IMG/VR virus record: IMGVR_UViG_648276652_000012
Reading direction: 5' to 3' (one strand)
Source: a virus
Taxonomy: Duplodnaviria > Heunggongvirae > Uroviricota > Caudoviricetes
DNA length: 21,453 bases
Shown piece after piece: positions 6,115 to 15,812 of this stretch (position 1 is its first letter; each line of letters begins with the position of its first letter). A model generated the notes under the pieces. It worked only from the letters and a program-made list of their open reading frames with translations. It was not told the origin of the DNA and ran no database searches. Both the position numbers and the translations under genes were made by a program.

Positions 6115-7230
6115 TTAAATCCCTGCTTTTCTGAATACCTGTGCATCACGCTCACGGAGTTGCTTCAGCGTCAGCCATTCGCCTTTATCGGTGTAAAATT
6201 CATCTGGCGACATACCGCCATCCCGAATCAGCTTTGCCCGGGTTTCCCCCACAATCTGTTTTTGTCTGGTGTAAGGCTGACGCAAAAACCATTCCCTGTA
6301 GGTTGTATCTCCGGCCACCACGCCATCCATGCTGGCCCGCTCAGCCGGGGAAATATCACGAACATCAATACCCAGTTCCTTCGCTGATTTCAGAATGAAC
6401 GTTTCCGTTGAGCGGCAGCAGAAATGAATTTTTCCCGGCCCATGCAAATAAGGCACACTGTGACCTACAGGTTTATTATCCAGCGTATATTTGAGGCGAT
6501 CCCTGATTCGACATTGTGGCGTAGTACGATTATCAAGCGTTGATAACCATTGCTTACCCTTAATCAAATCATTATTCGCGCTGGCAAAACTCTCACGGGC
6601 AGTAGCAGCAAGATGTCCAACCGCTGTTTTTGCAATGCTGGCCGCATTAGCCCGGCTCATCTGCAATGCACCATCCTGAAATCCCTTGCTGACATGTCCC
6701 CGAATTTTTCTTGCGATCTGCTCATTGGTATCCCCCAGCAAAAAACCCTGACGCACCGTATTTGTTATGCGTCTGAGCCGATCCGCCTCAAGATCCAAGG
6801 CCCACTCACTGAGCAGTCGTCCCTGGAATGGTCGCGCCATTGCAGCGGCGTAAAGTGCATCAGAAGATATACCAACCAGAGGGTGAACATCAGCAACAAA
6901 ATCAGGTAGCAGAGAATCAAACAGACTTAACTGATAACCAGCCTCATAAATTGCCAGCTCGTTCAGCTCTCCGGAGAGACTGGTAAACATGCTGTTAATA
7001 GCAGCGCGGTTAACCTCTCTGACACTCGCCAGAAGTGACTCCAGGCGCGTAACGGTAAAACTACCAGGATCGAGGCTGTCCAGTGCTACCAGCAGGCGAG
7101 CTGTAAGCTCCGCATCGCTGTCATTCAGTATTTTCACCATTCTGGCAGCCACACCAGTGCTATAGCGGGATATCCAGACTGCATGAGCAATTGATTCATC
7201 ACGCAGCCGTTCATTCACGGTTTGCATCAT
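6115..7230 (-). CDS. head morphogenesis protein (Mu F / SPP1 gp7-like minor head protein)
   Basis: 371-aa ORF directly downstream of the portal gene, overlapping its stop by 20 nt; size and position typical of this family. Confidence 0.7.
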   Translation of the reverse strand: MMQTVNERLRDESIAHAVWISRYSTGVAARMVKILNDSDAELTARLLVALDSLDPGSFTVTRLESLLASVREVNRAAINSMFTSLSGELNELAIYEAGYQLSLFDSLLPDFVADVHPLVGISSDALYAAAMARPFQGRLLSEWALDLEADRLRRITNTVRQGFLLGDTNEQIARKIRGHVSKGFQDGALQMSRANAASIAKTAVGHLAATARESFASANNDLIKGKQWLSTLDNRTTPQCRIRDRLKYTLDNKPVGHSVPYLHGPGKIHFCCRSTETFILKSAKELGIDVRDISPAERASMDGVVAGDTTYREWFLRQPYTRQKQIVGETRAKLIRDGGMSPDEFYTDKGEWLTLKQLRERDAQVFRKAGI

Positions 7231-8617
7231 TGATTTCCATCAACATTACACTCTGATTTTTTAATTCATCGATCACATCCTCTGGACGGGAATCCTGATC
7301 GATAAATTTCAACGCCTGCAACACCCGAACCGCATCAATCTGACGTATATCACCGCCCTGACGCAATGACTGAACAGCCAGCGCGGAGGATGAGTCAAAC
7401 ACCTGGGCAGATACATCCAGTTCAGTGCGCACATCCACATTGCCACCGCAACTCTCTCCGCTCCATTCCGCCATTATCTGGAGAATATTATCGAGGGCAT
7501 CTTCGAGGGAGTTCGCCATTGTATAAAGCGGCGAGTGTTCCTGCATCCGCTCTTCATTAGTCTGATCAACAGATTTGGTGGATGTATTTTCAGCCCGCAG
7601 AAGTTTAGCGCCGGCATGACGCATCTGATTTTCCAGCTTCTCAAGTGATGTTTCGCCAGATTCTATCGCTGCGCCACTATGTTCAACATATTCGAGGCCA
7701 TTTTTTGTTCTGTCCTCAAAAATCGTAGCCGTGGATGCACCAACCGTCAGTTCTTCATTCCTGTCCAGCCCGTAGGCCACCAGCAATGGAACGCGGGCAA
7801 CATGAAGAATATTGTCCTGCTCGCTCTGGCTTTGCCAGTGCTTGATATTCAGCAAGCCAAGATTAAGCAATGGCGGTGTACCACGCATAAACCCTGTTTT
7901 CTTCGTATACAGTGTTACCAGAGGAATATCATCACGGCTGGTATTCCATGACTCATGAAGCATCCAGACAGATTCGCCATTAGTACCTTCGCTGCGTCGA
8001 TAAATTTCTACTCGACGGGGCATAATATGGCGGATCTGCTCCACCTTCTTCTGCCCGAAATCATCACCATCAATAATGATGACCTCTTTTATACGCAAAT
8101 CAGTGAGAACAACTTTCCCTTTTTCAACTTTCGATTTCCATCCAATAACCTGGCGTGGATTCAGCATCGTAACGTACGGGCGACCACCGGCCGCGTTTTC
8201 ATCGGCTTTTGTCCGAATCTCGTTCATATCCGTTCGTGGATAGTCCACCAGCGCATGTGCCACACCATACTGAAATGCGAGACTGAAAAATTGCTGCGCC
8301 CACACATCCAGTCGGCTCCCCTCCATGTCGATATTTTCTGCATATTCCCTGATTTTTTCCGGCGTTTCCTCACTCAATACTGTCGGCTCTGCAAATATGC
8401 GCCCAATATTTTGTTTGATGCTTTCTTCATACACAGGAAGTAACGTAGCCACAGACAGGCGTTTTTTATAAGCGTCTTCATCTTCATTAGGCCATTTGGG
8501 GAGATAATTTTCCCCCTGCCTGCGCATTTCAAGCGTACCGCCCATCAATGCGTCGTTAATATCCCACGCCTCCAGCATATCGTTATAGTCGAGGTTGGGT
8601 GTTGATATATCAGCCAT
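7211..8617 (-). CDS. portal protein
   Basis: 468-aa ORF starting 3 nt after the large terminase stop; ATG at 8617; called by size and synteny. Confidence 0.75.
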   Translation of the reverse strand: MADISTPNLDYNDMLEAWDINDALMGGTLEMRRQGENYLPKWPNEDEDAYKKRLSVATLLPVYEESIKQNIGRIFAEPTVLSEETPEKIREYAENIDMEGSRLDVWAQQFFSLAFQYGVAHALVDYPRTDMNEIRTKADENAAGGRPYVTMLNPRQVIGWKSKVEKGKVVLTDLRIKEVIIIDGDDFGQKKVEQIRHIMPRRVEIYRRSEGTNGESVWMLHESWNTSRDDIPLVTLYTKKTGFMRGTPPLLNLGLLNIKHWQSQSEQDNILHVARVPLLVAYGLDRNEELTVGASTATIFEDRTKNGLEYVEHSGAAIESGETSLEKLENQMRHAGAKLLRAENTSTKSVDQTNEERMQEHSPLYTMANSLEDALDNILQIMAEWSGESCGGNVDVRTELDVSAQVFDSSSALAVQSLRQGGDIRQIDAVRVLQALKFIDQDSRPEDVIDELKNQSVMLMEINDANRE

Positions 8618-8619
8618 AA

Positions 8620-9921
8620 TTAAATCCGAAGTGATGTGACTCTTCCGGTCGGTTTGACAATAGGGAATTGCTTAACGATGAAATAACCTCCGGCATCATT
8701 CGGGTGATCATTGCCAGATTTTTTATCAGGCTCCCCCTTATCATCCCAGACCTGTTGCTCCAGAGATTCGGCATATACCGGACAACGCTTCACATTAACT
8801 TTATAGCGACGCTCACCATTGGCATTGCAGAACATTGCATTCATTGAGTTAACGCGATCTTTTACTGGCGGGTTCGAGCTGTTCACCACAACGTTAAAAC
8901 CTGCCTGCTTAAGCTGGGCTATATCCGTCGTACTTGCGTTACTTGATTTTCTGGAATCTCCGGAAGCATCTGGATAAATATAAATCTCCCTCACTTTCCG
9001 GTAATCATGCCCGTCATACAGCCAGAAGCGTTCTTTAATGAGGCGGATCATATCCGGCGTATCGTAGGCATTGATGATTTCAGTTACCGCACATGGAAGC
9101 CCCAAACGCAGCACATGGACGATTCCCGCCATCTTTCCAACGTTAAAATCCATCCCAATATAAATCGGCTCCCCTGGCTGCTCCACTTCTTCGCAATTAT
9201 TCAGTTTCCGGTCAAACTGATGGTAAACAGTACCACTTGTCAGGTTAGTAAACCGTCCTAGAAGATAGGCTTTAATCAGCTCTGGAGGGTATGATTCAAG
9301 AAGTGAAGGAATGTAATCTGCTGGCAGGTTCTTTTCATTATCGAAAGTAGATGCCTGCACCAGACCATACAGTGAGGCCAGCTCTGTTTTTTCACGCACG
9401 GCTTTAACAAACTGCTCGTAGACAAATTTGAATCCTTCCGGCGTGGTTGTAACGTCAATACCGTTGCGAAGTCCATCAATCTTATAACGCATACGCGCAA
9501 TTATCTTGCGCCACGCCGTTCTGGCTTTTTCCTTCGGCAAAATGTCCAGTTCATCCACCAGCGCATTACCAATTTTGAAACCGACGATCGTTTGTGGCTT
9601 CTCCATCGATCTGCAGATAGTGGTTCCCCGATACTGGCGTCCGTAATAAAAGTGAACCTCTTTATTTCCCTCATTAATTTTTACGTTCAATCCCCAGTCA
9701 GCAGCAACTTCTTCCACTGTAGGGTAAAAAATATCGCGAATTTGGGGATACGTTGGCGCAAAATATCCCTGATTTATACCTGGATGCTCCCAAATCCCCT
9801 TGCATATGCCGCCACACCCAACCCATGTTTTGCCCGAGCCAAAACCAGCAATATAGGCTTTAAATTTATGGGGCATTGAAAGAAATCGCGCCTGAGGCAC
9901 ATTAAGCGTCGGAGAGATCAT
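8620..9921 (-). CDS. terminase large subunit
   Basis: Walker A motif AGFGSGKT near the N-terminus and an acidic nuclease-like C-terminal half. Start set at the ATG at 9921 (AAGGAG 8 nt upstream); the ORF-track start at 9930 is GTG. Confidence 0.85.
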   Translation of the reverse strand: MISPTLNVPQARFLSMPHKFKAYIAGFGSGKTWVGCGGICKGIWEHPGINQGYFAPTYPQIRDIFYPTVEEVAADWGLNVKINEGNKEVHFYYGRQYRGTTICRSMEKPQTIVGFKIGNALVDELDILPKEKARTAWRKIIARMRYKIDGLRNGIDVTTTPEGFKFVYEQFVKAVREKTELASLYGLVQASTFDNEKNLPADYIPSLLESYPPELIKAYLLGRFTNLTSGTVYHQFDRKLNNCEEVEQPGEPIYIGMDFNVGKMAGIVHVLRLGLPCAVTEIINAYDTPDMIRLIKERFWLYDGHDYRKVREIYIYPDASGDSRKSSNASTTDIAQLKQAGFNVVVNSSNPPVKDRVNSMNAMFCNANGERRYKVNVKRCPVYAESLEQQVWDDKGEPDKKSGNDHPNDAGGYFIVKQFPIVKPTGRVTSLRI

Positions 9922-10996
9922 CTTCATCACTCCTTAATCTGGCATCAACCACATTAATATTGATCGCCACAGGCTGGGGATGTTCATTATCCTCCACCGT
10001 TTCGATCTCTTTGCGCAGCTTCTGGTTCTCTATTCTGCGCCGTTCAATTTCCAGTTCCTGTAGCCGCTTATCTGCACATAATGCCCCGCCAGCAGAAAGC
10101 AAACGCAACAATTCACGCCGGGCGGCAGCCTTATCCTCCAGCAGGATCTCAACACCGTATTTTCCGAGCTTTGACCCTGCATATAATTGCCGCGCATCCC
10201 CATCAAGCAGTGTGGTATCAGCCATATAAAGCTGTCCTGTTCCCTCACCGCAGCACTTCGGGCAATCAGGATTGGGTATGGCGTTATCAACAAAGCCGAG
10301 GCCTCCATATTCCGGCTCGGGTTTACCATCTCTGGAGGCCTGTGCCGCAGCCTTATCGAATTCTGCAATATCACGCCACTGGTAGAGATGATTCTCGCCC
10401 CAGCAATAACGGCAGTTAACACGGCGAAATTGTGCCAACTGATTGGGGTCGGCCTGGACAATGGCCATCAACTGGCTCACCAGTAAATCCAGGTCTGCGG
10501 TATAGCGTTTCTGGTACTGATTGCGGAAGTAGCTGATAGCACGATAAACCCTGGCATTTCTAAGCATACGGCTGGCGTTGCTGTTAGCTGTCGCACCTTG
10601 CCCCTCATAACCAGCCAGTCGGTATGCCTCTGTCGGCTTTTTCCCCTGAGCAACCAACATGGCGAATTTTGCCTGCTGGTCAGAAATACCGAATTCATCG
10701 GGGCAGAACGAAATTTCTTCCGTGTCCCCCTCAATCAGGAGTGCATCGGATACAGCCTTTTTTTTCTGAGATTTTCCGTTCTGCCTTTGCGCAGTCTGCG
10801 CAGTTTTTTTTCGCGCACTTTTTTGCGCAGTTTTGCGCATTTCTTTCTGCGCATTTTTCGGAGTTTTTTTGATGTAACGACGGGCTGTTGCGTAGTTCAG
10901 TCCCCTTGCTTCACACCATGCCACCGGAGATATACCGGAGCGGGTGTATTCAGCAATATACTCCTGCTGCAACGCCCCCCAGTCCGGTCTGCTCAT
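9902..10996 (-). CDS. terminase small subunit-like DNA-binding protein with an atypical extended architecture
   Basis: 364-aa ORF directly upstream of the large terminase gene. N-terminal helix-turn-helix-like segment, a Lys/Gln/Ala-rich low-complexity stretch, CRYC...CPKCC cysteine pairs, and a C-terminal coiled-coil with an acidic tail. Confidence 0.55.
   Translation of the reverse strand: MSRPDWGALQQEYIAEYTRSGISPVAWCEARGLNYATARRYIKKTPKNAQKEMRKTAQKSARKKTAQTAQRQNGKSQKKKAVSDALLIEGDTEEISFCPDEFGISDQQAKFAMLVAQGKKPTEAYRLAGYEGQGATANSNASRMLRNARVYRAISYFRNQYQKRYTADLDLLVSQLMAIVQADPNQLAQFRRVNCRYCWGENHLYQWRDIAEFDKAAAQASRDGKPEPEYGGLGFVDNAIPNPDCPKCCGEGTGQLYMADTTLLDGDARQLYAGSKLGKYGVEILLEDKAAARRELLRLLSAGGALCADKRLQELEIERRRIENQKLRKEIETVEDNEHPQPVAININVVDARLRSDEDDLSDA
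10755..10870. repeat. periodic T-tract plus (T/C)GCGCA repeat array inside the small terminase gene
   Basis: Six copies of tgcgca/cgcgca at 10788, 10797, 10812, 10824, 10834 and 10848, each preceded by a T4-T8 tract; spacing 9-15 bp. Confidence 0.6.
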
Positions 10997-10999
10997 CAG

Positions 11000-11251
11000 T
11001 TAGTCCTGATTTTTATCCACCCTGAGTAGTTCGCGCAGAGCAAAGGCATCCCCTTTTCTGGCAAGCTTAAACAATGCCGCTCGTAACTCGGCTTCACCTT
11101 TCGCTCTGCCCTTACGGATGGCCGCATAAAAATCTGTCATTGCTTCCCGATTTTCTTTCAGTCGGTTCAGATCAACATCCAGAACGTCAGCGATTTGTTG
11201 TGCAGTCATCCGGCACGCTGCCAGAGACTCGACTTTCGAATACGGAATCAT
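11000..11251 (-). CDS. small hypothetical protein with a possible helix-turn-helix
   Basis: 83-aa ORF ending 3 nt before the small terminase start; ATG at 11251 has GGGGGTG upstream. Overlaps the 3' end of the upstream gene by 65 nt, so the start is uncertain. Confidence 0.4.
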   Translation of the reverse strand: MIPYSKVESLAACRMTAQQIADVLDVDLNRLKENREAMTDFYAAIRKGRAKGEAELRAALFKLARKGDAFALRELLRVDKNQD

Positions 11252-12119
11252 TTGTCACCCCCATTGATATGCAGGGTGTCTTCTTCCTGTATTTTTCGTG
11301 AAGGATTTTTACTGCAGCGTTGTTCCAGGTGACCTGATGGTGAATGCGTTTATGGCTGGCACCCATCAGTGAGATTTTTACGCACGACGGCGAATACATG
11401 ACGGAGTAAAAACTTTTAACGTAGGTTCCGGAATCCAGATACAGCTCGGTCATTCCGCCGCTGTTTTTCTGCGTCTGTTTCTGCCCTAACTGGACAGCAC
11501 CGATCGTCATAAACAATTCACCACAGCGACCGAGATTCGTGTACGTATTCACATCCTCGTTAATGCGCCCCATGAATGAGAACGGTCGATCAACCGAACA
11601 GATAAAGCTGTTCATTGCCTTGCGTTTCACCCACGAAGCATGGCCGCCATTGTCACCAAGAAAATCCCCGCCCTGCGACATAGCGATGGAAAGCGCGGGT
11701 ATTGATTCGTAATACGCCAGCATTTCAGAAAGGATCGCATCCAGTTTCCTTATCGGGAAATAGGCCTGGTCATAGTTGCGATCCACCCGAAACTGGAACT
11801 CGTGATAATCATCATCGAGCTGAATGAAGTATTTACACCCGACCAGTTTTGCCAGGTCGAAACAGGCATTACGGGCGTAAAAAATTGAGCGGCGATCACC
11901 AAAATTATCGGCTTCGTCAAAACGACTGGCAATATCGGCTTTGGAAAATACCAGCACCTGTTCACCAAATTCAGCCATGTACTGATGCCGTGTCTTATCT
12001 TCATCATCAACAACGATAAAAATTTTCCCGGTATAGCCAGCACGACGCAACGTCCGGTAAGTCAGAACTTTGTCCGGTCGCCCGTGAGTCAGAATAAAGG
12101 CGCAAAAATCATCACGCAT
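11187..12119 (-). CDS. GT-A-like putative nucleotide-sugar transferase (glycosyltransferase motifs)
   Basis: N-terminal FILTHGRPDKV...KIFIVVDDED resembles the GT2-type sugar-nucleotide binding signature; a downstream QLDDDYHEF resembles a DXD motif. No predicted transmembrane stretch. Start set at the ATG at 12119, preceded by GGAGGAGGAGGAGG. Motif-based call, not verified. Confidence 0.5.
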   Translation of the reverse strand: MRDDFCAFILTHGRPDKVLTYRTLRRAGYTGKIFIVVDDEDKTRHQYMAEFGEQVLVFSKADIASRFDEADNFGDRRSIFYARNACFDLAKLVGCKYFIQLDDDYHEFQFRVDRNYDQAYFPIRKLDAILSEMLAYYESIPALSIAMSQGGDFLGDNGGHASWVKRKAMNSFICSVDRPFSFMGRINEDVNTYTNLGRCGELFMTIGAVQLGQKQTQKNSGGMTELYLDSGTYVKSFYSVMYSPSCVKISLMGASHKRIHHQVTWNNAAVKILHEKYRKKTPCISMGVTNDSVFESRVSGSVPDDCTTNR

Positions 12120-12906
12120 ATTCCTCCTCCTCCTCCCCGCCATGCATGATCTCCACCATGCGCTGCGTCATTCGGACAAATCCATTTTCAATAGCCTGCT
12201 GATAATCAATGATCACCAGCGCCGACTCCTCGAAAAGGCACTGAATTTCAGCGGGGGCATGAGCGTAATAGTCCGCAATTCTGCTGAAATTAAACACTGT
12301 GTGACGTTCTGCCGCACACAGGAGGAATTTCTCAATATCAGGATCAAGGGACGCCGAACGTATCCGGCTGATCAGCTCCTGAGTTTTCGTATCGTCGTAC
12401 AGTTCACTGATATCCGGTTTACCGCCCGACGGCTCATAAACAGGCGTATCAATTTTCGTCGTATACGGCTCCTCCTCATTTCCTGTACCGGGCAAAACAT
12501 CCGTCAACAGTTCATCAATTTCTGTCGGGATGAAGCCTGTCAGGGAGACATCAAAATCAGCATTGATTAGGTCCGACAGCTCCATCCGCAACAGATCTTC
12601 ATCCCAGCCAGCATTCATCGGCAGGCGATTATCTGCCAGGCGGTACGCCTTTTTCTGCTCATCCGTCAGGCCAGACAGAACAATGACCGGAACAGAATCC
12701 ATTTTGAGCATTTCAGCCGCCATAACACGACCGTGACCCGCAATAATTTCGCCCTTTTCGTCAATCAGCACCGGATTAGTCCAGCCGAATTGCTTAATAC
12801 TTTCTACCAGTTGTGCCACCTGCTCAGGGCTGTGCGTCCTGGCGTTGTGCGCATACGGTGACAATTCTTGTAATGGGCGATAGACTATCTTTAATTTCTC
12901 GCTCAT
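12112..12906 (-). CDS. ParB-like nuclease domain (ParB/Srx N-terminal domain) protein
   Basis: N-terminal region PLQELSPYAHNARTHSPEQVAQLVESIKQFGWTNPVLIDEKGEIIAGHGRVMAA fits the ParB/sulfiredoxin-fold pattern; acidic C-terminus (GGEEEEEYA). Confidence 0.7.
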   Translation of the reverse strand: MSEKLKIVYRPLQELSPYAHNARTHSPEQVAQLVESIKQFGWTNPVLIDEKGEIIAGHGRVMAAEMLKMDSVPVIVLSGLTDEQKKAYRLADNRLPMNAGWDEDLLRMELSDLINADFDVSLTGFIPTEIDELLTDVLPGTGNEEEPYTTKIDTPVYEPSGGKPDISELYDDTKTQELISRIRSASLDPDIEKFLLCAAERHTVFNFSRIADYYAHAPAEIQCLFEESALVIIDYQQAIENGFVRMTQRMVEIMHGGEEEEEYA

Positions 12907-13043: not shown

Positions 13044-14501
13044 TTAGGAGCGCCAAAAAAAACCTGAAAACAATATAATAACAGGATAAATTTCAAGGCG
13101 ACCAAGAATCATAGCTATGCACATTAAACATTTTGCAATGTCATTAAGCACTCCGAATGACGATGCAGTAGCCCCAAAACCTAATCCCATATTATTAATA
13201 CATGCAGCCACTGTTGCAAATGATGTAAGAAAATCATATCCCATACCATTTAACACCAGTATAAAAAACACCGTGAAGAGAGTATAAAGAAAAAAGAAAC
13301 TCCATACAGACCTCATTACACGATCTGTAACTATCTTCCCTCCTACATTTACACTCAACAACGCTCTGGGATGAGAAAGCTGATTTATCTCGTGTTTGCT
13401 TTGTTTGAAAAGTATAAGAAATCGAAGTGACTTAATTCCACCACAAGTTGAACCTATACATCCCCCAAAGAAACTTGACAACAGCAAAAACACTATCGTG
13501 TGCGTGGGCCAACTTGCATAATCCTGCGTAGCTAAACCATTATCAGTGAGCATGGAGCTGGCAAGAAAAAACGAATGAATAAAACTTCCATGCAAGTCAT
13601 ACATACCTATATGCCAGACCTGGAAAGAGGTAACAATGATCACCCCTAAGGCTATTAACAGAAAGAAACGAAGTTCAATATCTCTGATTAAAGGTTTTAT
13701 CGTTTTCCTGCTAATAACAATATACCAAAGAGTGAAGTTGAAAGCCGATAGCAGGGAAAAAGAACCAGCCACCAGCTCAACCAAATAGTTATTAAAATAT
13801 CCGATACTCTCGCTATGAGTTGAGAAACCACCAAGCGAAACTGTGGAAATCCCGTGACAAATAGCATCAAACAAAGGCATTCCTGCAAGTCTATAACAGA
13901 CAATACAAGCAATACCTAATAAAGAATAAGTTATCCACAGTGTCCGTGACGTATCGGCCAGGCGGGGAGTGAGTTTGTCATCCTTAAATGGCCCCGGCAT
14001 TTCTGACTGATAAAGCTTTGCACCACCAATACCCAATAATGGCAATACAGCAACCGCCAGAACAATAACTCCTAAACCACCTATAAAATTTAACTGTGAC
14101 CGATAGTACAAATATGCCCGAGGTAATGAACTAACATCATCAATTACAGTTGCTCCTGTTGTTGTTATTCCAGAAACCCCTTCAAACAGAGCATCAATGA
14201 ACGTTAAATTAAGTTCTGAGTCAATCCATAAAGGGAATGCACTAATAACAGAAAACAAAATCCAAAACATTACAATTATAATAAACCCATCACGGGTACG
14301 TAATTGAATGCCAGATTTCTTAGTTGTATACCACGCTCCGCCACCAATGCAAAAAAATATAACGAAAGTTATAAAGAAAACGAACAGGCTTTTTTCTTTA
14401 TAAAACAATGCTACAACCATTGGTGGCAACATTGAAAGACTATAGAGCCAAACCAGGAACCCACACATATGAGTAACAACTCTTACATGAGATGTATTCA
14501 T
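13044..14501 (-). CDS. trkG: Trk-system potassium uptake protein TrkG (TrkH/KtrB family)
   Basis: 485-aa polytopic membrane protein starting MNTSHVRVVTHMCGFLVWLYSL..., recognised from memory as E. coli TrkG. Markedly AT-rich compared with flanking phage genes. Start trimmed from the TTG at 14519 to the ATG at 14501. Confidence 0.9.
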   Translation of the reverse strand: MNTSHVRVVTHMCGFLVWLYSLSMLPPMVVALFYKEKSLFVFFITFVIFFCIGGGAWYTTKKSGIQLRTRDGFIIIVMFWILFSVISAFPLWIDSELNLTFIDALFEGVSGITTTGATVIDDVSSLPRAYLYYRSQLNFIGGLGVIVLAVAVLPLLGIGGAKLYQSEMPGPFKDDKLTPRLADTSRTLWITYSLLGIACIVCYRLAGMPLFDAICHGISTVSLGGFSTHSESIGYFNNYLVELVAGSFSLLSAFNFTLWYIVISRKTIKPLIRDIELRFFLLIALGVIIVTSFQVWHIGMYDLHGSFIHSFFLASSMLTDNGLATQDYASWPTHTIVFLLLSSFFGGCIGSTCGGIKSLRFLILFKQSKHEINQLSHPRALLSVNVGGKIVTDRVMRSVWSFFFLYTLFTVFFILVLNGMGYDFLTSFATVAACINNMGLGFGATASSFGVLNDIAKCLMCIAMILGRLEIYPVIILFSGFFWRS

Positions 14502-14638
14502 ATCTAAATATTCTTTCAATTATAACCACCTTGCTGCAATATTATGATTATACTGTATAAAATTTAACTCCTCTTAGATCTTACTTCACTGTTCCTTATG
14601 AAACAATCATCAAAATGAATCATATTGTAGTTAAGATT

Positions 14639-15103
14639 TTACTTTAAACACTGCTCGGTTATGTATTGCTGAGCACCTTCAAGTTGGGCCTGCATCATTA
14701 CCAGTCGTTCCCGGAGGGTGAAATAATCCCGTTCAGCGGTGTCTGCCAGTCGGGGGGAGGCTGCATTATCCACGCCGGAGGCGGTGGTGGCTTCACGCAC
14801 TGACTGACAGACTGCTTTGATGTGCAACCGACGACGACCAGCGGCAACATCATCACGCAGAACATCATTTTCAGCTTTCGCATCAGCTAACTCCTTCGTG
14901 TATTTTGCATCGAGCGCAGCAACATCACGCTGACGCATCTGCATGTCAGTAATTGCCGCGTTCGCCAGCTTCAGTTCTCTGGCATTTTTGTCGCGCTGTT
15001 CTTTGTAGGCGATGGCGTTATCACGGTAATGATTAACACCCCATGACAGGCAGACGACGATGCAGATAACCAGAGCGGAGATAATCGCGGTTACTCTGTT
15101 CAT
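14639..15103 (-). CDS. Rz: Rz i-spanin
   Basis: N-terminal transmembrane segment then a coiled-coil periplasmic domain; ATG at 15103 overlaps the endolysin stop (ATGA). Confidence 0.85.
14698..14883 (-). CDS. Rz1: Rz1 o-spanin, embedded out of frame inside Rz
   Basis: [20 protein letters not shown] lipoprotein signal with a lipobox cysteine, followed by a proline-rich PPPPP segment; entirely nested in Rz. Confidence 0.85.
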
Positions 15104-15597
15104 TGCTGACCCCACAAACAGATTTCACGCTCAATCTCACGACGAGTCATGAGACCTTTCCATTGCTTACCGCCAGCATATGTCCAGCGACGTAGCTGAT
15201 CACATGCGCCTTTGATATCGCCCTGGTTTATTTTGCGAAGAAGCGTCGATGTTCTGAAATTGCCAGCACCCACGTTGTAAACGAATGAGTAAAGAGCGCC
15301 GCGCGTTGTTTCCGGTATATCGACTTTGATGTACGGGTTAATTTGTCTGGCGACCGTGGCAAGGTCTTTATTCAAGAGTGTTTTGCATTCTGCTTTGGTA
15401 TACGTTTTACCGAGCATGATGTCTTTTCCTGTATGCCCGTGACATACAGTCCATACACCAACAATATCTTTGTATGGTATGTAGCTGACACCTTCCAGAC
15501 CATCGTTACCACTTGGGCCAGTGATTAACACTGATGCTATAGCAATTGCTCCGCCACCAATAGCAGCAGCAACGGCTTTTCGTAATGATGGAGGCAT
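15100..15597 (-). CDS. R: SAR endolysin (phage 21 R-type lysozyme)
   Basis: 165 aa; weakly hydrophobic Gly/Ala-rich N-terminal signal-anchor-release segment ([20 protein letters not shown]) followed by a lysozyme domain; recognised from memory as R21-like. Confidence 0.9.
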
Positions 15598-15812
15598 TAT
15601 TCACCTCTCGCAGCCTTGCGCTTATCTTCTTTAATCTTGAAATAAAGATTTGTCAGATACGTCAGCAGGCCAAATACCAGGCTACCCAGCACACCTATTG
15701 CCGCCCACTGTGAGGGCGTGACTTTATCGAGCAACTGTAAAAACCAGTATCCCGCACTACCCGCGGATGTTCCGTAGGCAATGCCAGTAGAGATTTTGTC
15801 CATTGATTTCAT
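15597..15812 (-). CDS. S: pinholin (phage 21 S-type holin) with dual-start motif
   Basis: 71 aa beginning MKSMDK (Met1 and Met4 starts), two transmembrane segments; GGAGG 7 nt upstream; stop overlaps the R start (TAATG). Confidence 0.9.

Follow-up and report, generated by a model that had tools for sequence, protein, structure and literature searches.

A small terminase gene of a Rac-like Escherichia coli prophage contains a hexamer array that is a candidate pac site

The pac site of a headful phage is difficult to locate, and has been identified in only a few cases. In phage P1, pac is a 161-bp segment within pacA containing seven TGATC(A/G) hexamers, which are required by PacA/PacB and form two clusters separated by an IHF site and the cut; when the hexamers are recoded synonymously, packaging falls about ninefold (PMC10028697). 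In P22 and SPP1, pac falls inside terS, the small-terminase gene, or at its beginning; the SPP1 site contains direct repeats and overlaps the terS start. The canonical DNA-binding domain of the SF6 small terminase binds DNA weakly and non-specifically (PMC4737164), and therefore there is room for a separate specificity module. Here we analyse the terS gene of a virus record of the class Caudoviricetes (IMG/VR record IMGVR_UViG_648276652_000012), a stretch of 21,453 nucleotides referred to below as the window. The protein encoded by this gene is already known and annotated; the most interesting result is a hexamer array inside the gene, arranged with a P1-like logic.

In the window, terS is an open reading frame (ORF) at 9902-10996 on the minus strand, with the ATG at 10996, the stop codon at 9902-9904 and the sequence AGGA 7 nucleotides upstream of the ATG, and encodes 364 residues. 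A preliminary description of this DNA had given the same coordinates; a plus-strand reading of them was dismissed, as the corresponding translation is riddled with stops.

The hexamer array and the N-terminal helix-turn-helix module

The array occupies 66 bp (10788-10853; gene nucleotides 144-209) in the part of terS that codes for a basic linker, and consists of six TGCGC(A/G) hexamers with A-runs between them, at start-to-start spacings of 14, 10, 12, 15 and 9 bp. TGCGCA is palindromic, the array is detected by Tandem Repeats Finder, and six of the ten matches to TGCGCRRA in the whole window fall here, inside a span of 68 bp. Isolated copies of the hexamer with its flank (TGCGCAAA and TGCGCGAA) occur at 10010-10017 and 11030-11037 on the minus strand, that is, about 770 bp downstream of the array, near the 3' end of terS, and about 180 bp upstream of it, in a gene for an 83-residue protein; these extra copies may be due to chance.

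Among 80 close relatives, and likewise among 32 close variants, the array varies from 4 to 7 copies; wherever it encodes Ala-Gln, the preceding codon ends in T without exception (AAT, ACT, AGT, TCT, TTT or GAT), and the Ala codon is always GCG. In the gene of a Klebsiella phage TerS that is only 39% identical, the equivalent place again holds the TGCGCA hexamer, read in three codon phases. A set of 21 loci from about 20 species has 4-10 copies of TGCGCA at gene nucleotides ~135-290, and these make up nearly all the TGCGCA sites of each locus of about 6 kb; they occupy all three codon phases (91, 25 and 13 hexamers, respectively) and 20 peptide contexts. In addition, among 30 unique variants sharing the same register, variable columns amount to 4 of 36 in the hexamers and 20 of 30 in the spacers (Fisher p = 6e-6). 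Because the hexamers occur in three phases, encode varied peptides and are steadier than their spacers, selection appears to act on the DNA and not on the peptide alone, and the array is very probably a functional DNA site. By the same comparison, the low-complexity linker looks as if it had been shaped by the DNA repeat array, and not by protein function alone.

If the array had no role in cis, it would be the footprint of a tandem peptide repeat (T/S/N-A-Q-K) in a basic, DNA-touching linker, generated by replication slippage. The linker is indeed basic and of low complexity, close relatives differ in copy number by whole units, and 91 of the 129 hexamers lie in one codon phase, where they encode x-A-Q or x-A-H. 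This last figure does count against a site shaped at the DNA level only, because it implies that the repetition is partly a peptide repeat too. However, the remaining 38 hexamers belong to two further codon phases, where they specify unrelated peptides (LRT, MRN, CA and others) although their DNA is exact, and the hexamer columns are far steadier than the coding spacers, as reported above. Furthermore, the array motifs are nearly absent from the remainder of each locus, the inverted copies found in other subtypes (see below) are not explicable by a peptide repeat, and the equivalent layout in P1 is a proven DNA site. An array that merely reflects its peptide is thus very unlikely. It should also be noted that terS is broken by frameshifts or early stops inside the linker, the location of the A-runs (up to 8-9 A), in several relatives (loci L048, L085, L105 at 2265-2486, and L118); the homopolymers between the hexamers may be slippage-prone, and may be a frequent route to prophage inactivation.

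The protein segment preceding the linker (residues 1-45; 10862-10996, minus strand) is an accessory helix-turn-helix (HTH) module of the type found in PacA and in the TerS of Shiga toxin (Stx)-converting phages, while the linker itself (residues 46-103; 10688-10861, minus strand) is probably disordered. Both elements had been recognised in the preliminary description, and both are supported by an alignment-based AlphaFold (AF2) model, in which three helices (residues 6-20, 24-31 and 35-38) with a predicted local distance difference test (pLDDT) score of 87-95 are followed by a Lys/Gln/Ala/Thr-rich segment (residues ~46-100) with a pLDDT of 43-75. The sequence NYATARRYIKK is the putative recognition helix. 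HTH and linker are optional, and most family members are without them: across an alignment of 94 homologues, a set picked to include full-length members, the N-terminal region is occupied in only about 20-30% of the sequences, and the linker in ~16-43% per 10-residue block (mostly 16-31%). A search of NCBIfam returned nothing beyond a sub-threshold match to an IS66 TnpA-like HTH. Using hhalign, the module matched the N-terminus of VT2-Sakai TerS with a probability of 98.6% (E 1e-15, ~40% identity), and a set of 11 N-terminal modules matched PacA residues 1-64 with a probability of 87.6% (E 3.5e-6; 40 colinear columns, including TARRY). By these profile comparisons, the module appears clearly homologous to that of the Stx-phage TerS and, more weakly, to that of P1 PacA.

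Family members with a different third HTH helix carry other repeated 7-8-mers at the array position, frequently with direct repeats first and inverted ones after them; within a locus, these motifs are usually confined to that position. The third helix EGAIRKRAKKNGWVR is associated with the repeat GGTACGCA, DTAIRKRAKADEWPK with GGTTCGCA, KALRYMAGKKGW with GGGGCAAA, HTAINQKAKAKGW with GTGGAAAC, KSTLIDMAKK with CCGACC/GGTCGG, TAKRYIK with TGCGAAT, and YETIIRRAKKYGW with AAAAAGTCAC. When motifs were predicted from the helix type alone, and set down before the DNA was fetched, three of four predictions were exact and the fourth was one base off (CCGTCC for CCGACC). In a control using segments of 240 nucleotides, a 7-mer in at least four copies was found in 84% of 50 linker segments, compared with 0.7% of 1,016 other segments from the same loci, and in 30 family members lacking the N-terminal module no such arrays were found between positions -700 and +900 relative to the start of the gene.

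The layout of the P1 site is closely comparable. In the P1 record, the hexamers are located at pacA nucleotides 194-228 and 324-375, flanking the cuts at nucleotides 276-285, in several codon phases and just behind the N-terminal HTH (NPNTARRYLRAF) and a basic segment. PacA and the TerS of the window are both long subunits (397 and 364 residues, respectively), both begin with a homologous HTH (NPNTARRYLRAF and NYATARRYIKK) followed by a basic segment, and both genes contain a cluster of palindromic TGNNCA hexamers in several phases, starting at nucleotide 194 in P1 and at nucleotide 144 here. In contrast, the remainder of PacA is unrelated, with no Terminase_2 match and no four-cysteine (Cys4) module such as that described below. 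Homology to PacA does not extend over the whole protein: P1-like phages are absent among the full-length tblastn matches listed, and neither PacA nor the PacA of phage D6 gives a Terminase_2 match.

A second comparable case is the TerS of Stx-converting phages (933W/VT2-Sakai orf49 type). In VT2-Sakai orf49 (L172, 2501-3307), four (C/T)GATCATGA repeats with a 12-bp period stand directly after the HTH; they contain Dam sites and are translated as IDHE, IDHK, TDHE and IDHD. The clearly homologous N-terminal module and the short-period in-gene repeat behind it are thus shared with the terS of the window, whereas the remainder of this 268-residue protein is different, with no Terminase_2 domain and no Cys4 module, and the repeat motif is another one. 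In the P1-like phage D6 (L171, 2501-3865), ATGATC repeats are present further into pacA. The Stx-phage and D6 repeats may be unrecognised pac sites; a pac site for Stx phages was not found in the searchable literature.

Considering the conservation at the DNA level, the subtype-specific repeats at the same spot and the P1-like layout, we favour, with moderate confidence, the reading that the array is a pac site and that the N-terminal HTH is its reader. Several points weigh against this assignment. The homology to PacA is modest, and tblastn of the whole phage collection reaches the PacA of phage D6 only at E 0.1. In P1, the cut and an IHF site have four hexamers on one side and three on the other, while the window has a single 66-bp cluster; moreover, TGATC(A/G) contains GATC and is subject to Dam control, while TGCGC(A/G) is without GATC. 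Because HTH and array are about 150 bp apart, their co-inheritance could largely account for the covariation between HTH and motif and for the accuracy of the predictions. A second, different helix, STLRY(L/W)AK, also pairs with TGCGCA, and the TARRYL of P1 is nearly the same as the TARRYI found here, yet the hexamers differ (TGATCA and TGCGCA, respectively). Because two helix types share one hexamer and nearly the same helix goes with two, the reading code cannot be simple, and a code of one helix for one motif was rejected for this reason. Finally, the searchable literature yielded no packaging-start or cleavage data for the phage family of this prophage, and no report linking TGCGCA to a terminase was found there.

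The canonical Terminase_2 HTH was also considered as the main reader of the array and was ruled out, as TGCGCA arrays accompany at least three types of core DNA-binding domain in the alignment, are found on scaffolds without Terminase_2, and are absent where the N-terminal module is missing.

Alternatively, the array could be bound by the N-terminal HTH for a regulatory purpose, as an operator for autoregulation of terS/terL or as a roadblock to read-through of the late operon. Arrays of repeats next to an HTH are typical of operators, the gene that contains this one is the first of the packaging operon, and the N-terminal module, like PacA, gives sub-threshold matches to transposase and homeodomain-like HTH models. 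On the other hand, the module stands at the N-terminus of annotated terminase subunits of three different scaffolds, known pac sites (those of P1, P22 and SPP1) are themselves located in terS or at its beginning, and the homologous arrangement in P1 is a packaging site. We regard a regulatory role in place of packaging as unlikely, and the two roles are mutually compatible.

Terminase core, cysteine module and C-terminal tail

The preliminary description had proposed the 364-residue protein as a small terminase candidate, and domain analysis places it in the terminase family. It matches Pfam Terminase_2 (PF03592) with 36.1 bits (gathering cut-off 26.1; E 1.2e-8), residues 122-316 covering model positions 19-129 of 141, i.e. 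111 positions, so that about 85 residues are extra. It also matches PHROG 51 (small terminase) with E 6.4e-75, and is called terminase small subunit in RefSeq and in phage records. While a search of the Protein Data Bank (PDB) with the single protein gave marginal matches only, a family profile built from the 94 diverse homologues (25-51% identity to the query) matched the SF6 small terminase (3zqp) with E 3.6e-16, as well as the small terminases of Pam5, PaP3 and NV1. The SF6 match is split, profile positions 5-87 aligning with SF6 21-102 and positions 183-219 with SF6 117-153, with about 95 profile positions between; the second piece is weak (i-Evalue 1.1). The core is broken up by the Cys4 insertion. 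In a viral structure library, the best matches for the protein were all small terminases. The alignment-based AlphaFold model has a mean pLDDT of 86, with values above 90 across most of residues 100-330 (a single-sequence model, with a pLDDT of 45, was unusable), and the predicted order of secondary-structure elements agrees with a helical oligomerisation core and a beta-hairpin, the parts that in the SPP1/SF6 type form a ring of 9-10 subunits. The protein is therefore almost certainly a true Terminase_2 small terminase. Its homologues number in thousands, and the features observed in terS are beyond chance.

The core starts with the canonical Terminase_2 HTH DNA-binding domain, of G1P fold (residues 104-164; 10505-10687, minus strand), followed by the first helix of the oligomerisation core (residues 165-184; 10445-10504, minus strand), which continues the alignment with SF6 G1P up to about position 102 and is modelled as a helix at residues 169-181. 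After the inserted Cys4 module (residues 185-265; 10202-10444, minus strand), the rest of the oligomerisation core consists of a beta-hairpin and a long C-terminal helix (residues 266-336; 9989-10201, minus strand). The protein ends in an acidic tail (residues 337-364; 9905-9988, minus strand) with a pLDDT of about 50. What had been described as a C-terminal coiled-coil with an acidic tail is, in the AF2 model, one long helix (residues 289-336) and then the acidic, low-confidence tail.

The G1P proteins of SPP1 and SF6 (3zqp/3zqq, 2cmp, 4zc3) share with this protein the core helix, the beta-hairpin, the C-terminal helix and the position of the gene directly upstream of the large terminase. Unlike it, they have 145-164 residues, with neither the N-terminal extension of about 100 residues nor the Cys4 insertion of about 80. 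The earlier estimate that the protein is about twice the usual size agrees with the 134-164 residues of the solved relatives; most members of the Cys4 subfamily have 240-270, and the unusual length is mostly due to the added N-terminal HTH and linker. The TerS proteins of phages F116, Bcep22 and BcepIL02 also possess a Terminase_2 core with a Cys4 insertion (F116 gp38 contains CCRYCHG ... CPECAGDG, and is 33-36% identical over residues 104-284). These proteins, however, have 259-271 residues and no N-terminal HTH, linker or in-gene array; pac recognition of the F116 type must differ.

The four cysteines of the module are C195 (10412-10414), C198 (10403-10405), C245 (10262-10264) and C248 (10253-10255), all on the minus strand, in the knuckles NCRYCWG and DCPKCCGEG. 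Their pairing as C195-R-Y-C198 and C245-P-K-C248(-C249) had already been noticed in the preliminary description; in the 94-sequence alignment all four are invariant, together with R196, G200, G250 and G252. The knuckles are about 47 residues apart, the module has a pLDDT of 97-98, and the pattern CxxC...CxxC occurs in 114 of the 149 top-ranking cluster representatives, the remainder being mostly fragments. The module follows the first core helix and precedes the beta-hairpin, within the Terminase_2 core, and is absent from both the Pfam model and SF6 G1P; it is therefore an insertion in the core and not a terminal fusion. The earlier idea that a DNA-recognition module had been fused with an extra metal-binding domain is thus correct as regards a multi-domain protein with an extra DNA-recognition module and a probable metal module, but not as regards an end fusion. 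The insertion is universal in a subfamily of 1,261 representative clusters (50% identity; E<=1e-10), which is distributed among Enterobacterales, Pseudomonas, Burkholderia, sphingomonads, Paenibacillus and others, and includes the TerS of phages F116, Bcep22 and BcepIL02. It is a widespread variant of the Terminase_2 fold, undescribed as far as could be found.

A pair of CxxCxG and CxxCxGxG knuckles is a classic structural Zn(Cys)4 signature, as in the CxxCxGxG motifs of DnaJ and anti-TRAP. Judging from this signature, the module very probably binds zinc, most likely at one structural Zn(Cys)4 site. The possibility that the four cysteines form two disulphides, or bind another cofactor such as iron, should also be considered. 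No zinc-finger model and no other significant Pfam match was obtained with the isolated Cys4 segment (nor was any with the isolated N-terminal segment), and no structural match or fold neighbour of the module, zinc ribbon or other, was found in the PDB. These results tell against zinc, and the zinc assignment derives solely from conservation and a monomer model. Accordingly, of the earlier suggestion of a zinc ribbon, the invariant CxxC pair stands, while no curated zinc-finger family or solved zinc-ribbon fold was matched. Nevertheless, the two Gly-trailed knuckles are invariant across Proteobacteria, Firmicutes and others, their pattern is of the DnaJ/anti-TRAP kind (a marginal profile match to anti-TRAP 3lcz, E 3.3, was obtained), and disulphides are unlikely in a cytoplasmic protein; cysteines without zinc are, in our opinion, quite improbable. 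A zinc module in phage small terminases was not found in the searchable literature, where zinc fingers are mentioned only for herpesvirus terminase subunits. Herpes simplex virus 1 pUL28 and human cytomegalovirus pUL56 are DNA-recognition subunits of the terminase with zinc-binding cysteine clusters (PMC9611059). The parallel is a functional one only, as no relationship in sequence or fold was detected.

The acidic tail contains the conserved motif PVAININVVDAR, which, when 43 loci were sorted by the downstream terL (large terminase) gene, was found to accompany the large terminase of the window type. Other tail types (DYQLQAL.PDEP.P..PIL, Y.PEDY...DLD and VVHNAL.PG) each go with a large-terminase type of their own. 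The last ~30 residues of TerS therefore match the terL type, and do so independently of the type of the N-terminal module (TerS 3' ends of loci L086-L170 included). Because tail types are independent of N-terminal types, terS is a three-part recombinational mosaic of recognition cassette, core and terminase-specific tail. The tail is probably a docking peptide for the large terminase, as suggested by these sequence pairings, and this agrees with the known role of the TerS C-terminus in binding the large terminase; on the other hand, the match may be due to linkage, since the tail abuts terL.

The upstream 83-residue protein and the genomic context

A gene for an 83-residue HTH-like protein (11000-11251, minus strand) ends 3 nucleotides before terS. 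The protein matches phrog_309 ('terminase small subunit') with E 8e-23, over profile positions 145-218 of 319 only, and shows 35% identity over the N-terminal two-thirds of the 129-residue TerS of Pasteurella phage Pmp13, whose gene stands directly before the Pmp13 large terminase. GenBank phage records annotate only a 69-residue version starting from an internal Met; the longer form is probably right, because homologues conserve the first 14 residues. Homologues with 34-71% identity are found immediately upstream of long terS genes in many diverse loci, whatever the N-terminal type.

These data raise the possibility that the 364-residue protein is not the working, or not the sole, small terminase, and that the phrog_309 protein recognises the DNA, at the array or elsewhere. 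The conservation of its gene upstream of long terS genes, and the fact that Pmp13 offers no TerS candidate other than the 129-residue relative ahead of its large terminase, are in favour of this alternative, and the 83-residue protein could be the real reader of some site. Nevertheless, it covers only the N-terminal two-thirds of its relative, the 364-residue protein has the features of Terminase_2 and its gene overlaps terL, and arrays are also present in loci without the 83-residue gene (L004, L005, L167 and L169), which disfavours it as the array reader. We consider this alternative highly improbable. The 83-residue gene is a conserved partner of terS and not a canonical second small terminase. 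No second canonical small terminase, the finding that could have overturned the earlier assignment, is present, though the small upstream gene does fall in the phrog_309 family.

Downstream, terL (8620-9930, minus strand; Terminase_6N, E 3.5e-32; Terminase_6C, E 7.8e-11) overlaps the 3' end of terS by 20-29 nucleotides, and an identical overlap is annotated in a phage record. It is followed by genes for the portal protein (DUF4055; 7211-8617, minus strand) and a MuF-like protein (6115-7230, minus strand). The co-oriented order terS-terL-portal-MuF-like is repeated in phage records, so that terS occupies the gene position of a small terminase. The counterpart of the MuF-like protein is labelled 'NAD+--asparagine ADP-ribosyltransferase' in a related phage record, and this annotation suggests a possible toxin-like C-terminal domain.

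Upstream of the 83-residue gene are found, all on the minus strand, a glycosyltransferase gene (11187-12143; Pfam TAGT, of the TET-associated type, named 'GREB1-related protein' by the Prokaryotic Genome Annotation Pipeline, PGAP), a ParB/Srx-like gene (ynaK; 12112-12906), trkG (13044-14519), and the holin, lysozyme and Rz genes (14639-15812). All these neighbours of terS lie on the same strand and constitute the late region of the phage. trkG, a potassium-uptake gene known from the defective Rac prophage of K-12, is here carried as cargo and separates the lysis cassette from the packaging genes in what appears to be an intact Rac relative. The glycosyltransferase and ParB/Srx-like genes are directly upstream of the packaging genes, a position occupied elsewhere by ParB-methyltransferase fusions or by a Dam-like gene with a GNAT gene (L105, 596-1999; L170, 347-1735; L168, 1-1072). 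By analogy, a DNA-modification module beside the putative pac site would recall the Dam control of P1 pac.

Many E. coli chromosomes contain the segment 8500-13200 with 100% identity; of 5,426 complete E. coli genomes, 1,629 (~30%) have a matching segment, and the PGAP name for the 364-residue ORF is 'terminase small subunit'. Induced E. coli phages, such as vB_EcoS-666R9, carry the segment at 94% identity and keep the gene order. From this chromosomal identity and the induced phages with the same order, the window is taken as an intact Rac-like E. coli prophage, which would be of the headful-packaging kind; its terS gene is already annotated.

Proposed packaging mechanism and its significance

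A mechanism can be proposed in which TerS is a mosaic of four functional parts. The PacA-like HTH (residues 1-45), on a basic tether of about 55 residues, would be a recognition cassette, and the hexamer array would be pac. On flexible tethers, the HTHs of several ring subunits would bind one hexamer apiece and so mark the phage DNA for the first cut, while the Lys-rich repetitive linker (TAQK, SAQK, NAQK) would largely be the translation of binding sites spaced by A-tracts. The SF6/SPP1-type HTH (residues 104-164) would wrap or hold the DNA; the Cys4 module would be a rigid extra lobe on each ring subunit, and one may guess that it is a structural or docking surface; and the C-terminal helix with the acidic tail would recruit the cognate large terminase. 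Taken as a whole, with the pac assignment included, this scheme seems to us reasonably probable.

Because PacA and the Stx-phage TerS are not Terminase_2 proteins, the HTH and the adjoining array resemble a cassette placed on different scaffolds, namely Terminase_2 with the Cys4 insertion, Stx-phage TerS and P1 PacA. We give about an even chance to the more general idea that HTH and array are a portable packaging-specificity cassette (a reader and its site, ~250 bp) found on at least three unrelated scaffolds, with diversified specificities. At least ten specificities are proposed: TGCGCA, TGCGAAT, GGTACGCA, GGTTCGCA, GGGGCAAA, GTGGAAAC, CCGACC, CCGTCC, AAAAAGTCAC and GATCATGA.

The Cys4 module delimits a large subfamily of small terminases without a solved structure and, if it does bind zinc, would have no described precedent as a zinc module among phage small terminases. 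If the interpretation of the array is correct, terS would be a clear example of an amino-acid sequence dictated by an overlapping DNA signal, and would help explain how a ring of weak, non-specific HTH domains gains sequence specificity; swapping of cassettes should then retarget packaging. The rule of a PacA-like HTH followed by an in-gene array would also predict, from sequence, the pac sites and packaging specificity of many prophages, as well as the chromosomal regions mobilised by lateral or generalised transduction.

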